The position numbers and the translations under genes are program-made. From Candidatus Omnitrophota bacterium (GTDB lineage Bacteria > Omnitrophota > Gorgyraeia > Pluralincolimonadales > Pluralincolimonadaceae), in assembly GCA_003141835.1 (NCBI GenBank), contig PLNR01000008.1:132472-196471 (forward strand): a DNA stretch of 64,000 nt, given 5' to 3'. Of this stretch, positions 24,743-35,683 are shown one piece after another. Each line of letters opens with the position of its first letter. Positions within the stretch are counted from its first letter, which is position 1. The notes under the pieces were generated by a model that was not told the DNA's origin, did not search any database, and worked only from the letters and a program-made list of their open reading frames with translations.

Positions 24743-24819
24743 TGGTCGGGGCGAGCGGACTTGAACCGCTGACCACTTGTACCCCATACAAGTGCTCTAC
24801 CAAACTGAGCCACGCCCCG
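24743..24819 (-). tRNA. tRNA-Pro (anticodon GGG), CCA encoded
   Basis: The 77-nt cloverleaf was folded manually. Acceptor 7 bp CGGGGCG/CGCCCCG, D-stem GCUC/GAGC, anticodon stem CUUGU/ACAAG with loop AUGGGGU (G37), T-stem AGCGG/CCGCU, TPsiC-like loop UUCAAGU, discriminator A and CCA. An extended -10 TGATATAAT (24851..24843) lies about 25 nt upstream. Confidence 0.85.
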
Positions 24820-30928: not shown

Positions 30929-32200
30929 TCACCCGATATGCAAGACTTCTGAAATATTCTTTTCTTGGGACTTTCCCGCTGTCCCGATGACGGCCATGTT
31001 CAGGTGCCTGTCTGTGAATACGCGCCCGGCTACCCTTCTCACGTCATCAGGGGTTATCTTCTCGATCTCAACGACGACTTCCTGCGGCGTGGGGATCTTG
31101 CCTTCCGCCGAAAGATGCTCGCCCATCCATAACATCTGGTCAAGCGTGTCCTCCAACCCGAGGAGAAGCTGGCCTTTATAGAACTCGCGGGCGCGCTCGA
31201 ACTCGTCCTTGCCCACGGTCTTATCTTTTATCTTTTTGAGTTCCTTCATTACCAGTTCGGTGGATTTTATCACATTTTTGTTGTCGAGCCCGGCAGAGAC
31301 GAGGAAAGCGCCTGTATCGTTCAATTTCTTTGTGTGGGTGTTTATTTCGTATGCCAGGCCGCGTTTCTCGCGGATCTCCTTAAAGAGCCTGCTCGACATA
31401 TTACCGCCCAGGATTATATTCAGCATCGTCAGGGCGTATTTATCGGGATCACCGCGCCCGAAAGCGCGGATGCCTATCGCGAGGTGCGCCTGCTCCGTCT
31501 CTTTCGAGAGTGTCTTGAAGTTAGGCCTCTTCTGCGCCTCCGAGGCATTTTTATATGAGGATTTCATTCCGGGGCGCGCGGCATCAAGGTATTTTTCGCA
31601 GGATGAGAAGAACCTGTCCGCGTCAAGGTTCCCGGCGGCCGAGACGACTATATTTGCGGGATTATAATATTTATTTTTATAACCGGATATATCAGCTCTC
31701 TTCATATCCGAGACGGTTTTGACCGTGCCGGCCAGGTTACGGCCGAGAGGCTGGTCAGGCCAGAGAAGTTCCATAAGCATGTCCTGGACGTGGTGGTTCG
31801 GGAGGTCCATGTAAAGCTTGATCTCTTCCTGGATCACCGTCTTCTCTTTTTTGATATCGACGGGATCGAGTTTAGCGTTCAGGACCATATCCGAAAGGAT
31901 GTCGAGGGCAGTGTCCATATCCCTTCTTAAGACCTTAACGAGATAGCAGGTGAACTCTTCCGAGGTGAAGCCGTTCATCGCCCCGCCTCTCCCTTCGATC
32001 GCCTCTTTTATGTCGTCATTCGTCCTCTTCTTCGTCCCCTTGAAAAGGAGGTGCTCGATGAAATGAGATACGCCGCTTATCGCCTTCGGCTCGTAACGCG
32101 CGCCGACGTTAAGCCAGATACCTATAGAGATGGAATCCCTGTCCGGGATCTCCCTGGCAACGAACCGCCCGCCGTTACCAAAGGTCTTGAATCTATACAT
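30929..32200 (-). CDS. M16-family (pitrilysin-like) zinc peptidase
   Basis: 423 aa with the inverted zinc motif HFIEHLLF...E. Confidence 0.85.
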   Translation of the reverse strand: MYRFKTFGNGGRFVAREIPDRDSISIGIWLNVGARYEPKAISGVSHFIEHLLFKGTKKRTNDDIKEAIEGRGGAMNGFTSEEFTCYLVKVLRRDMDTALDILSDMVLNAKLDPVDIKKEKTVIQEEIKLYMDLPNHHVQDMLMELLWPDQPLGRNLAGTVKTVSDMKRADISGYKNKYYNPANIVVSAAGNLDADRFFSSCEKYLDAARPGMKSSYKNASEAQKRPNFKTLSKETEQAHLAIGIRAFGRGDPDKYALTMLNIILGGNMSSRLFKEIREKRGLAYEINTHTKKLNDTGAFLVSAGLDNKNVIKSTELVMKELKKIKDKTVGKDEFERAREFYKGQLLLGLEDTLDQMLWMGEHLSAEGKIPTPQEVVVEIEKITPDDVRRVAGRVFTDRHLNMAVIGTAGKSQEKNISEVLHIG

Positions 32201-32618
32201 TATGTTTCAACCTTTCGAGGTATGATTCGAGGATCAGTTGCGCGGCCATCTTGTCTATGACGCTCTTCCGCTTCTTTCTCGAGACATCAGCCGATATCAG
32301 GAATTTTTCGCTTTCTTTGGTGGATAACCTTTCGTCGTAGGTATAGACCGGTATGGAGAGGCGGCCCTTGAGCGTCTCGACGAATTCATTCACTTTTTCA
32401 GCGCTCTTGCCTTTAGTCCCGTCCATATTTATAGGCATCCCGACTACTACAGATTCGGCCTTATATTCCTCTATTATTTTTTTAATTTCGTTGAGATCAG
32501 CCTCAAGCTCTTTCCTTGCTATGACGGTCACGCCCTGGGCTATTATGCCGAGCGGGTCGCTTACAGCTACCCCTATCCTTTTTTCGCCTGCGTCCAGCGC
32601 CAGTACCCTCATAGGCAT
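32193..32618 (-). CDS. ruvX: Holliday-junction-resolvase-like pre-16S rRNA nuclease RuvX/YqgF
   Basis: 141 aa: MRVLALDAGEKRIGVAVSD.... Confidence 0.9.
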   Translation of the reverse strand: MPMRVLALDAGEKRIGVAVSDPLGIIAQGVTVIARKELEADLNEIKKIIEEYKAESVVVGMPINMDGTKGKSAEKVNEFVETLKGRLSIPVYTYDERLSTKESEKFLISADVSRKKRKSVIDKMAAQLILESYLERLKHNV

Positions 32619-33703
32619 CCCTTGAGGTCCTTATCCGATTTCATGAGCCCGACGAGCCTCTTGACGTCCTGCGCCCTGTCGCGGCTGCAGACGAGCACGC
32701 AGTCGCCGTCGCGCACCACTATTATATCGGATACGCCTATCGTCCCTATGATGCCCTGCGAGGAGACTATCACCGAATTTTTCGTGTCTATCTCCTTGTG
32801 GGAGCCGATCGTGAAATTGCCGTCCTTGTCTGTCGCGAGATGGCGGGCGAGCGAATCCCAGGAGCCGAGGTCATCCCAGTAAAATTTCCCTTCGACCGCG
32901 AATATCCTCTTCTCTTTTTCCAGGACGCCGTAATCTATCGATATCTCTTCGAGGTTCGGATAGACGCTGTTAAGTTTCCCGTAAAAGCTGAAATGACCGA
33001 TGCTCGGTTCAAGCAGCTGCAGGCCGAGGTAGAGCCTGGGGAGGTTCTCCTTTATCGCGTCGAGGATGCTCGTCGCCTTCCATATGAAGATACCGCCGTT
33101 CCAGTAATACCTCTTCTCTTTCAGGAATTTCATCGCGTTCGAAAGGCTCGGTTTTTCGACGAATGCCATGACCCTGTGGACCTTCGCTTTCAGGCCCGGG
33201 CCTTTTATCCTGAACTGGCCGCTCGTGTCTATCCTAAGGTAGCCGTATCCTGTTGCGGGGAAAGTGGGCTTTACGCCTATCGTCACAAGGCCGTTCGAGG
33301 CCTCGGCGACCTTTACGCCAGTCAGGAGCGCGTCTATGAATTTATCTTTTTCCTTTATGAAGTGGTCCGACGGCAGGACGATCAACGTCGCCTGGGGATC
33401 AGCTTTCTTTATGATCATTGCGGCGAGCCCGCATGCCGCAGCCGTGTTTTTCGCTGCCGGCTCGGCGATTATGTTCTTTATGGATGGCAGGTCGGCTTTT
33501 ATCGAACCGAACTGCTCCTTGTTCGTAATGACGTATATCCTTTCGGCCGGGACTATAGGCAGTATCCTGTCGACCGTCTCCTGGATGAGCGACCGCCTGC
33601 CCATCAGCTTAAGCGTCTGTTTCGGGGTCTTTGCCCTGCTCTTGGGCCAGAACCTCTCTCCTCTTCCGCCGGCGATAATTACCGCATAGATATTTTTATT
33701 GAT
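32609..33703 (-). CDS. mannose-1-phosphate guanylyltransferase (GDP-mannose pyrophosphorylase), probable AUC start codon
   Basis: The first in-frame ATG is at 33604 (MGRRSLIQ...). The conserved nucleotide-binding N-terminus ([28 protein letters not shown]) is encoded in frame upstream of it. No ATG, GTG or TTG occurs between it and the in-frame TAG at 33716. GGAGG sits 6 nt before the ATC at 33703..33701. Confidence 0.7.
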   Translation of the reverse strand: MNKNIYAVIIAGGRGERFWPKSRAKTPKQTLKLMGRRSLIQETVDRILPIVPAERIYVITNKEQFGSIKADLPSIKNIIAEPAAKNTAAACGLAAMIIKKADPQATLIVLPSDHFIKEKDKFIDALLTGVKVAEASNGLVTIGVKPTFPATGYGYLRIDTSGQFRIKGPGLKAKVHRVMAFVEKPSLSNAMKFLKEKRYYWNGGIFIWKATSILDAIKENLPRLYLGLQLLEPSIGHFSFYGKLNSVYPNLEEISIDYGVLEKEKRIFAVEGKFYWDDLGSWDSLARHLATDKDGNFTIGSHKEIDTKNSVIVSSQGIIGTIGVSDIIVVRDGDCVLVCSRDRAQDVKRLVGLMKSDKDLKGCL

Positions 33704-34493
33704 GGGAGGCCTCCGCTAATTTTTGGACGTAGTCGCCTACGAGCTTGATAAAGTCCTTGCGTTTAGAGTTTTTCTCTATTTCCTTTACGATGGCCGACCC
33801 GACTATGACCCCTTCGGCCATCTTTGCTATCTCGCGGACCTGCCCGGGCCTTGAGACGCCGAACCCGACGCAGACCGGTTTATCCGAATATCTTTTTATC
33901 AGGCGGACGCGCGATGCCAGCTCTTTCGGCAGGTTTGCCCGCGCTCCGGTGATCCCGGTGAGCGAGACGTAATAAATGAAACCTTTTGACTTCTTTGAGA
34001 CGAGCCTTATCCTATCGGGGGTGCTCGTAGGGCTCAATAAAAATATCGTCGCGAAATCCCTCTTCTTTGCTTCGGCTACCAGGTCTTCCGCCTCATCCGG
34101 AGGAAGGTCCGGGATGATCACCCCATCGACGCCGTTTCCCGCGCAGTCCGAGACGAATTTTTTCAATCCGTATTTCAGGACCGGATTATAATATCCCATG
34201 AGGATGACCGGGATACAGGTCGAGCGCCTCAGGTCTTTGACCAGTTTAATGATATCTTTAAGTTTCGTTCCGCGTTTTAAGGCGCGCTCGGACGAGGCCT
34301 GTATCGTTGGGCCGTCTGCGACCGGGTCGGAGAACGGCACACCGAGCTCGATGATGTCGACGCCGCGCCTGTCAAATTCAAGGACGAGCTTTTTTGTCGT
34401 CGAAAGGCCGAAGTCACCGGCGGTCAGGAAAGCGATGAGCGCCTTCTGCTTTTTCTTTTTAAGTTCCTTGAATTTTTTGTCTATTCTATTCAT
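33696..34493 (-). CDS. trpA: tryptophan synthase alpha subunit
   Basis: 265 aa: ...[14 protein letters not shown].... Confidence 0.93.
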
Positions 34494-35683
34494 CTTTTTC
34501 TTGACGCCAACGCTTTCGAGACCATATCAACGTCCTTGTCCCCTCTTCCCGAGAGGCATACGACGACGATATCGCTTTTTTTATGTTTCCGCGCGTGTTT
34601 CGCTAGGTACGCTATCGCGTGCGATGATTCGAGGGCTGGTATTATTCCCTCTGTCTCGGATAACAATTGGAACGCGTCCAGCGCCTCGTCATCCGTCACC
34701 GATACGTATTTCGCGCGGCCTATCGATTTAAAATACGCGTGCTCCGGACCGACGCCCGGGTAGTCGAGGCCGGCGGATATGGAATGGGCTATCTTTACCT
34801 GGCCCGCTTTATCCTGCAGGAGATAACTCTTGCTCCCGTGAAGTACGCCGACCTCTCCTTTTTCGAGGGTCGCGGCGTGCAGGCCCGTAGACAAACCTCG
34901 CCCTGCCGCCTCAACGCCGATGAATTTCACTTTTTTATCGTTGAAGAAATTATAAAAGAGCCCCATCGAATTCGAGCCGCCGCCGACGCACGCGAGCAGG
35001 TAGTCCGGCAGCCTGCCTTCGAGTTTCAATATCTGGCGCTTCGTCTCTTTCCCTATCACGGATTGGAAATCGCGGACCATCATCGGGAACGGATGCGGGC
35101 CTGCCACCGAGCCGATGCAATAATGTGTCGACCTGACGTTCGTGACCCAATCGCGCATCGCCTCGTTCATGGCGTCTTTTAAGGTCTTGCTCCCGCTTGA
35201 TACCGAAGTCACTTTTGAGCCGAGCAGGCGCATCCTGAATACATTAAGGGCCTGCCTCTTTATATCCTCCTCGCCCATGAAGACCTCGCATTCGAGGCCG
35301 AAGAGCGCGGCGACTGTGGCGGTTGCCACGCCGTGCTGGCCTGCGCCGGTCTCGGCGATGATCCTCTTCTTCCCCATCCTGAGCGTCAAAAGCCCCTGGC
35401 CCAGGGTATTATTTATCTTGTGAGATCCGGTATGGTTGAGGTCCTCGCGCTTAAGGTATATCTTCGGGCCTTTCAGTTTTTCGGTGAGGCGCCGGGCGTA
35501 ATAAAGCACGCTCGGCCTTCCCGCGAAGTCGGAGAGGTAATAATCCAGGAGTTTCCGGAATTTTTTATCTTTTTTTGCGGCCGCATACTCGCGCTCGAGC
35601 TCATCAAGCGCTGTCATGAGCGTCTCCGGGACATACTTTCCCCCGAATACGCCAAAATGGCCTTTTTTGTCAGGCAGTTTCAC
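34490..35683 (-). CDS. trpB: tryptophan synthase beta subunit (GTG start)
   Basis: 397 aa: ...HTGSHKINN... PLP lysine motif. The start is the GTG at 35683; an upstream ATG is out of frame and is followed by TGA. Confidence 0.93.

Follow-up and report, generated by a model that had tools for sequence, protein, structure and literature searches.

To our knowledge, very few starts other than AUG, GUG or UUG have been confirmed in bacteria. In Escherichia coli only two are confirmed, the AUU codons of infC and pcnB (Hecht et al., preprint 10.1101/063800), which encode initiation factor 3 (IF3) and poly(A) polymerase, respectively. In the same organism AUA, AUC, AUU and CUG initiate at approximately 1-2% of the level of AUG, and a reporter that is started at AUC carries an N-terminal Met (10.1101/063800). 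An excess of IF3 inhibits both initiation at such codons and reinitiation that proceeds without a Shine-Dalgarno sequence (SD) (PMC2268962). A second described system that is relevant here is termination-reinitiation coupling, which needs the stop codon of one gene and the start codon of the next to overlap or to be adjacent (PMC6728339; PMC10666635), and which is nearly abolished in E. coli and in Haloferax when the two are 19 nucleotides (nt) apart (PMC10666635). Bacterial examples of AUC starts are few, and no report on the start codons of Omnitrophota was found in the literature. Here we describe a gene of the manC type (mannose-1-phosphate guanylyltransferase-like) that is encoded on the minus strand of a 64,000-nt stretch of contig PLNR01000008.1 from a Candidatus Omnitrophota bacterium (assembly GCA_003141835.1). 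This whole stretch is referred to as the window, and all coordinates without a prefix are positions within it. The gene probably starts at an AUC codon which, together with its SD, is embedded in the last codons of the upstream gene trpA.

The start region is made up of the following features.

32609..33703, minus strand: revised manC-type coding sequence, 364 codons, from the ATC at 33703 to the stop at 32611-32609
33701..33703, minus strand: proposed initiation codon ATC (AUC), with ATC or ATT at the homologous position in orthologues
33710..33714, minus strand: SD GGAGG, within the trpA codons GCG-GAG-GCC, 6 nt 5' of the ATC
33716..33718, minus strand: in-frame TAG that closes the manC frame upstream, formed by the trpA Leu codon TTA and the G that follows it
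33605..33700, minus strand: 32 codons from the ATC to the first ATG, which include the nucleotide-binding signature AGGRGERFWPKS (33673-33638)
33602..33604, minus strand: first canonical in-frame ATG, an internal Met codon, used by automatic callers to give a product of 331 amino acids (aa)
33696..34493, minus strand: trpA (tryptophan synthase alpha; Pfam Trp_syntA, 4.4e-89), the last codons of which hold the SD and the ATC

The 3' end of trpA on the minus strand reads ...AAA TTA GCG GAG GCC TCC CAT CAA TAA, with the stop TAA at 33698-33696, and in the +1 frame relative to trpA the same region reads TAG CGG AGG CCT CCC ATC AAT AAA AAT ATC TAT GCG GTA ATT. The manC frame then continues ATC GCC GGC GGA AGA GGA GAG AGG TTC TGG CCC AAG AGC ... 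CTG ATG, and from the TAG at 33718-33716 to the ATG at 33604 it contains no ATG, GTG or TTG. A stretch of 37 codons that lacks a canonical start has an estimated chance of about 0.15 and hence is not rare; the significance of this one therefore lies in homology and in its conservation in at least 24 related sequences, not in its length. Among the approximately 50 genes of the window, manC is the only one with a sizeable gap (92 nt) between the upstream gene's end and the first canonical start. A full GGAGG precedes only five of the 50 other gene starts, so that the manC SD ranks with the strongest of the window. The region of initiation is rich in A and U and is not structured, its fold scoring z = +1.23 against shuffled controls. 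A first-pass annotation, made from the letters of the window alone, had read the gene as starting at the AUC, and all that it stated about the local sequence is correct, that is, the GGAGG 6 nt upstream, the in-frame stop at 33716, the ATG at 33604 and the lack of a canonical start. The clade-wide occurrence of the arrangement, the overlap between the trpA stop and the start codon and the inconsistency of the public annotation go beyond what was noted there.

A protein search places the product in a tight Omnitrophota clade (72-96% identity), most members of which have been called as proteins of 331 aa starting MGRRSL; a look-up of the window's own 331-aa product gave no exact match. The comparison set comprises 24 distinct orthologous start regions and three variants (L040, L041 and L042), all from Omnitrophota assemblies, with the DNA drawn from GTDB species representatives, JGI metagenomes and contigs from Logan, ENA and NCBI. 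In what follows ATY stands for ATC or ATT, and position 0 is the codon homologous to the ATC at 33703-33701 of the window. Position 0 is ATC in 19 of the 24 lineages and ATT, which is restricted to one sub-clade, in the other five; ATG, GTG, TTG and ATA occur there in none, and the three variants likewise have ATY. The preceding codon is CCC in 22/24, and a GGAGG-type SD stands 3-6 nt, most often 6 nt, upstream in 20/24, the remaining four lineages having weaker motifs of the AGGAG, GAGG or AAGG type. An upstream in-frame stop equivalent to the TAG of the window (TAG, TGA or TAA) is found in 18 of the 24. Between the upstream in-frame stop and ATY a canonical start is absent in 18/24, and 17 of these 18 have none as far as the GG motif either. 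Three separate JGI samples contain the same start region as the L002 genome. The lineage L039 has a TGA two codons 5' of the ATC, which means that the start must fall within the interval before the Tyr codon, CCC ATC GAT AAG AAT GTA, where ATC is the sole established near-cognate start.

The pattern of selection changes at the same place. Nei-Gojobori estimates of the proportions of nonsynonymous and synonymous differences (pN and pS) were made for the 24 sequences, or for the 19 ungapped ones in the region 5' of ATY. Across the 27 codons from the Tyr codon to just before the internal Met, the manC frame has a pN/pS of 0.076 and no stops, with synonymous sites near saturation (pS 0.667), whereas the other two frames give ratios of 1.6-2.3 and contain 21-61 stops. 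Across the 20 codons 5' of ATY the relation is reversed: the manC frame has a pN/pS of 1.21 and 41 stops, and it is the trpA frame that is stop-free, with a ratio of 0.54. This shift of constraint from the trpA frame to the manC frame indicates an opening of the latter within the interval from the SD to the Tyr codon. The presence of ATC or ATT in 24/24 lineages and in the three variants, coupled with the switch of constraint at this point, bears out the first-pass reading of a non-canonical AUC start.

The protein itself also calls for the additional N-terminal residues. The product from the ATC matches PF00483 NTP_transferase (1.7e-34, 119.9 bits) with profile position 2 at residue 7, whereas in the 331-aa product from the ATG the match begins only at profile position 31 (88.7 bits). 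The signature is thus missing from the shorter product, in keeping with the first-pass statement that an ATG start would delete the N-terminal motif. The best-matching structures extend the same way: the Thermotoga maritima enzyme PDB 2x5s aligns to residues 7-351 of the query from chain residue 4 (E=5.8e-65), the Thermus enzyme 2cu2 aligns from chain residue 3, and both alignments span the signature (A/L)AGGxGERxWP(L/K)S. Pfam positions 2-30 and residues 3-30 of 2x5s and 2cu2 match only the N-terminal extension, which argues that this extension is needed for the fold. The ATC places 10 residues before the AGG motif, within the 7-16 that are found in distant homologues (e.g., MDKSKNLYAVIMAGG and MNKKPQIYALIMAGG), and measured from ATY the orthologues are 364-368 aa long. 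The ATC-start product also matches PF22640 ManC_GMP_beta-helix (1.5e-16), giving it the combination that marks a short, single-function ManC, namely an NTP_transferase domain with N-terminal GGxGxRxWP followed by the C-terminal ManC beta-helix. The model for the bifunctional guanylyltransferase/phosphomannose isomerase (GMP/PMI), TIGR01479, scores 273.4 bits, below its cut-off of 372.95, and is covered only over positions 1-349 of 467, with no PMI domain. In domain composition, and in having GGxGxRxWP within a few residues of the first Met, the protein therefore resembles the enzymes represented by 2x5s and 2cu2. It differs from the characterised and distant ManC homologues in its start codon, which is ATG in those proteins, including an Omnitrophota outgroup of 45% identity, and has been lost only in this clade.

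Collectively these comparisons make it probable that manC initiates at the SD-proximal AUC or AUU codon. The locus shows the three properties by which non-canonical starts are recognised, in that it has no canonical start, has a near-cognate codon at SD distance and conserves that codon in orthologues, and it adds a well-conserved case to a rare but known class of starts and is not a new mechanism. As in infC and pcnB, a chromosomal gene has as its only usable start a near-cognate AUH codon that follows an SD, and the weak codon would be expected from the E. coli data to limit expression. Unlike those genes, manC has AUC in most lineages and AUU in a single sub-clade, its start lies within the final codons of the gene upstream, and the evidence for it is comparative. 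Moreover, manC encodes a sugar nucleotidyltransferase and not a factor for translation or RNA processing, and has no obvious counterpart to IF3 feedback. The suggestion in the first-pass annotation that autoregulation of the infC kind might operate gains nothing here: no evidence for it was found, ManC, which is not a translation factor, is not known to act in initiation, and the window contains no infC.

Several observations weigh against an ATY start and its coupling to trpA. Of the 24 lineages, six have an in-frame ATG, GTG or TTG upstream of ATY that is usable in principle. Those ATG and TTG codons at which the public models of 369, 373 and 377 aa begin are mere by-products of codon choice in trpA (Tyr-Val as TAT-G; Leu as CTT-G, TTA-G or CTG-A), and in several lineages a stop comes after them. 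Inside trpA, the A and T of ATY are bases 2 and 3 of an invariant His codon, and conservation of position 0 may therefore be driven in part by trpA. The sequences are related by descent, and the counts are accordingly not counts of independent events; the support as a whole is comparative, and its source is metagenome-assembled genomes of uncultured bacteria. Finally, in two lineages (L035:1380-1403 and L042:1239-1263) the trpA stop lies 19 nt 5' of the ATC and only a weak AAAGG precedes it, which means that coupling cannot be universal in the clade. These two lineages nevertheless retain the ATC, as does L033, in which the trpA stop is in the spacer, and this persistence where the codon no longer overlaps trpA indicates that its conservation reflects more than constraint on trpA. 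The upstream ATG of the 373-aa models was also considered as an ancestral start and rejected, as it arises from the choice of Tyr codon in trpA, and in L008, L011, L015 and L036 a stop comes after it.

Other explanations have been considered for how the manC frame is entered. Some public records imply a start on a different Ile codon further downstream: OGX41890.1 and its relatives begin MYAVIIAGG, which corresponds to the second ATC (33691), MDD5073498.1 and MFH0771281.1, from the Prokaryotic Genome Annotation Pipeline (PGAP), have MAGG as their first residues and so start at the ATA or ATC codon within Val-Ile-Ile (33679/33676), and P0016 begins M-A-G-G where L013 reads ATA GCC GGC GGA. All of these are ATH codons and hence near-cognate. 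However, codon +4 is not conserved as a near-cognate (it is ACC in L001, GTT in L013 and GTA in L039), and the downstream candidates stand 18-30 nt from the SD with no SD-like motif of their own. The residues Tyr-Ala-Val that precede Ile-Ile are kept through two, four and five different codons, respectively, such synonymous conservation indicating that they are translated, and a start at MAGG would forfeit strand beta-1, the counterpart of residues 4-9 in the 2x5s alignment. A downstream Ile start is thus unlikely. Less likely still is that the internal ATG at 33604 is the true start, with the 33 codons upstream being a leader or a decaying remnant and the protein a 331-aa form without the nucleotide-binding loop. 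It is the first canonical start and is the one chosen in most automatic calls for the family, but the 27 codons 5' of it are stop-free and under purifying constraint in all 24 sequences (pN/pS 0.076), the ATG has no SD and gives way to ATA in L015 and to GTG in L034, and the resulting protein would begin at Pfam position 31 without GGxGxRxWP.

A start codon would not be needed at all if a programmed +1 frameshift near the end of trpA produced a TrpA-ManC fusion, and the arrangement has a superficial likeness to prfB in that the frame of manC is +1 to that of trpA and a GGAGG lies shortly 5' of the trpA stop. In the prfB frameshift the SD spacing is 3 nt, whereas here the SD is 8 nt from the last sense codon of trpA, and neither CAA-TAA nor CAT-TAA can re-pair in the +1 frame, leaving no slippery codon. 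The lineages also exclude one another's shift sites. In L039 the manC frame is closed by the TGA at p-6..p-4 relative to ATY, which permits a shift only after p-4; in L033 trpA terminates at p-4..p-2, which permits a shift only before that point, and in L035 and L042 trpA stops 19 nt upstream. As the permitted intervals of L039 and L033 do not overlap, no shared site is possible, and the locus has neither of the hallmarks of a prfB-like shift, a slippery codon and a shift site common to the lineages. Consistent with this, Trp_syntA and NTP_transferase occur together in none of the 120 homologues listed, and a frameshift must be regarded as highly improbable. An error of sequencing or assembly, which the first-pass annotation had held open as the alternative and which would have destroyed an ATG or created a frameshift in a single assembly, has in its favour only that the window lacks a canonical start here. 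It is scarcely credible given that the arrangement recurs in 24 distinct sequences, the products of independent projects and assemblers, and that no orthologue has ATG at the position. Two further proposals were rejected: read-through of the TAG or an alternative genetic code would provide no canonical start upstream and would have to extend to TGA and TAA in other lineages, and a genome-wide habit of non-canonical starts is at odds with the approximately 50 other genes of the window, which have ATG, GTG or TTG next to where the upstream gene ends.

With initiation at the SD-proximal AUC or AUU as the favoured reading, the events at the junction may be envisaged as follows. The GGAGG 6 nt upstream of the AUC would hold either a 30S subunit or a ribosome fresh from termination on trpA. 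The AUC itself would then be decoded by the initiator tRNA, with fMet-tRNA pairing imperfectly and translation yielding a ManC of 364 residues. The trpA stop being 2-7 nt from the start codon, initiation would probably be coupled to translation of trpA, and the weak codon would set the output of ManC well below that of TrpA. The low efficiency of initiation assumed in this scheme is extrapolated from the E. coli measurements (10.1101/063800).

The geometry of the junction gives reasonable, if not strong, grounds for supposing that most lineages couple manC initiation to termination on trpA. In the window the trpA stop and the manC start overlap by 8 nt. Counted from ATY, the stop of trpA, which is TAA throughout, has its first base at +2 (CAT TAA, giving ATTAA) or +5 (CAT CAA or CAT CGA, then TAA) in 22 of the 24 lineages. 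In L033 it is at -4, in the spacer (AGGAGGCC TAA T ATC), and with this lineage included the distance is at most 7 nt in 23/24. The pair thus has the form required of coupled genes, being co-directional with stop and start overlapping or within a few nt, L035 and L042 being the exceptions. The likeness to coupling at overlapping stop and start codons of the ATGA or TGATG type extends to the trpA stop lying 2-7 nt from the manC start in 22/24, to the position of the manC SD inside the upstream gene and to the overlap of the flanking gene pairs. It differs in having a restart codon other than AUG, GUG or UUG and overlaps of 5 or 8 nt (ATTAA or ATCAATAA) in place of 1 or 4; in addition, TrpA and ManC are not subunits of one complex, and two lineages keep the ATC across a gap of 19 nt. 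A hairpin in the mRNA that masks the SD was rejected as the basis of coupling, since the region folds no better than shuffled sequences (z = +1.23). The C-terminal tail of TrpA (33699-33725), which lies beyond the Pfam domain, has the unusually conserved form L-x-E-(A/V)-x-H-(Q/R)*. The His is invariably encoded by CAT and the Glu almost without exception by GAG, as expected if the latter codon also serves as part of the SD, and the tail looks doubly constrained, by the SD and by the start codon of manC that it contains.

The history of the start can be traced in part from the relatives. The Omnitrophota outgroup reads ATG TCA ATC AAC AAG AAT ATT TAC (MSINKNIY), which implies that the Ile codon was formerly internal and that an ATG two codons upstream of it was lost in this clade. 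Canonical starts have since been regained in three lineages (L032, L040 and L041), in each case through insertion or rearrangement at the junction and never through a change of ATC to ATG. In L032 the tail of trpA has been rewritten; beyond it come a spacer of 35 nt, the SD AGAGGG and an ATG (MKRNKNIY). This lineage groups with the ATC-bearing L036 and L039 in a neighbour-joining tree, in which the outgroup branch is very long and the outgroup sequence partial, so that the polarity of the L032 ATG is an argument from parsimony only. In L040 and L041, insertions of 51 and 63 nt, respectively, lie directly after the Tyr codon and supply an ATG (with the SD AGGAAAGA) or a GTG (without an SD). Neither insertion contains a stop or breaks the frame set by the SD and the ATC, which are retained, as one would predict for an ATC that was in use as the start at the time of insertion.

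The insertions (L041:651-714 and L040:733-783) occupy the identical site in the two lineages, corresponding to about 33686 of the window, after the Tyr of INKNIY. That of L041 has a terminal inverted repeat (ACCCCGTTAGAAGTC...GACTTCTAACGGGGT) and a predicted fold of -30.9 kcal/mol (z = -4.8), and that of L040 has the terminal inverted repeat ACCCCGC...GCGGGGT. They look like small palindromic elements of the miniature inverted-repeat transposable element (MITE) or repetitive extragenic palindrome (REP) kind; no convincing copy of the L041 terminal repeat was found in the window or at the other loci.

Whether the weak codon is itself an object of selection is a separate matter. An ATG at position 0 would be compatible with the tail of trpA (as CAT-GAA-TAA or CAT-GGA-TAA), yet it is never seen, and the third base of ATY toggles only between C and T in 24/24 lineages (27 with L040-L042). 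The absence of ATG despite near-saturated synonymous sites is a hint of selection for a weak start, but not a proof, and on the sequence comparison maintenance of the codon by selection is possible although on balance doubtful. The proposal that AUC or AUU serves as a selected, fixed attenuator within a string of coupled genes, passing a small and constant fraction of the ribosomes that translate trpA into manC, is equally tentative. If it were true, since IF3 discriminates against such codons, the activation of envelope sugars would respond to IF3 and to ribosome status. The locus is also a natural case in which to ask if selection favours weak start codons as a means of fixing the ratios of expression in coupled operons. 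Independently of selection, the comparative support for this start is unusually strong, with a weak codon, and an SD before it, conserved across a whole clade of uncultured bacteria at 72-95% amino-acid identity.

The manC gene is systematically misannotated across the clade. The public records of the orthologue that were examined (P0001-P0024 and P0121-P0155) have at least nine different N-termini, giving proteins of 331, 344, 355, 360, 363, 369, 373, 377 and 384 aa, and none of these models uses the SD-proximal ATY that yields the 364-aa product. Starts on ATC or ATA are already in use in some GenBank/PGAP records, although these lie at codon +4 or +9. The 331-aa models mostly lack the catalytic nucleotide-binding loop and can therefore mislead inferences about domains, structures and pathways in Omnitrophota.

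The genes on either side of trpA and manC lie on the same strand.

34490..35683, minus strand: trpB, with a 4-nt overlap with trpA (ATGA); PF00291 is found 5' of trpA in orthologous loci
32193..32618, minus strand: ruvX/yqgF-like gene, overlapping the 3' end of manC by 10 nt; PF03652 RuvX in syntenic loci
30929-32200, minus strand: M16 peptidase gene, with an 8-nt overlap with ruvX; PF00675/PF05193 in syntenic loci

Together these five co-directional genes, trpB-trpA-manC-ruvX-M16, span 30929-35683 on the minus strand with successive overlaps of 4, 8, 10 and 8 nt, and their order is kept in relatives despite their unrelated functions. At the junction of trpA with manC the sequence GGAGGCCTCC (33705-33714, minus strand) forms a perfect 10-bp palindrome in which the SD is directly followed, in the spacer, by an anti-SD-like CCUCC. 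This palindrome is confined to the window and L001, other lineages having GGAGGCGTCC, GGAGGCTTCC or GGAGGCGGCC, and is probably incidental. The use of SDs in the window is modest, with any 4-mer match within 22 nt at about 30 of 50 gene starts, and the start codons comprise 38 ATG, 7 GTG and 5 TTG. The only tRNA gene of the 64-kb window is a tRNA-Pro (GGG) at 24743-24819 on the minus strand.

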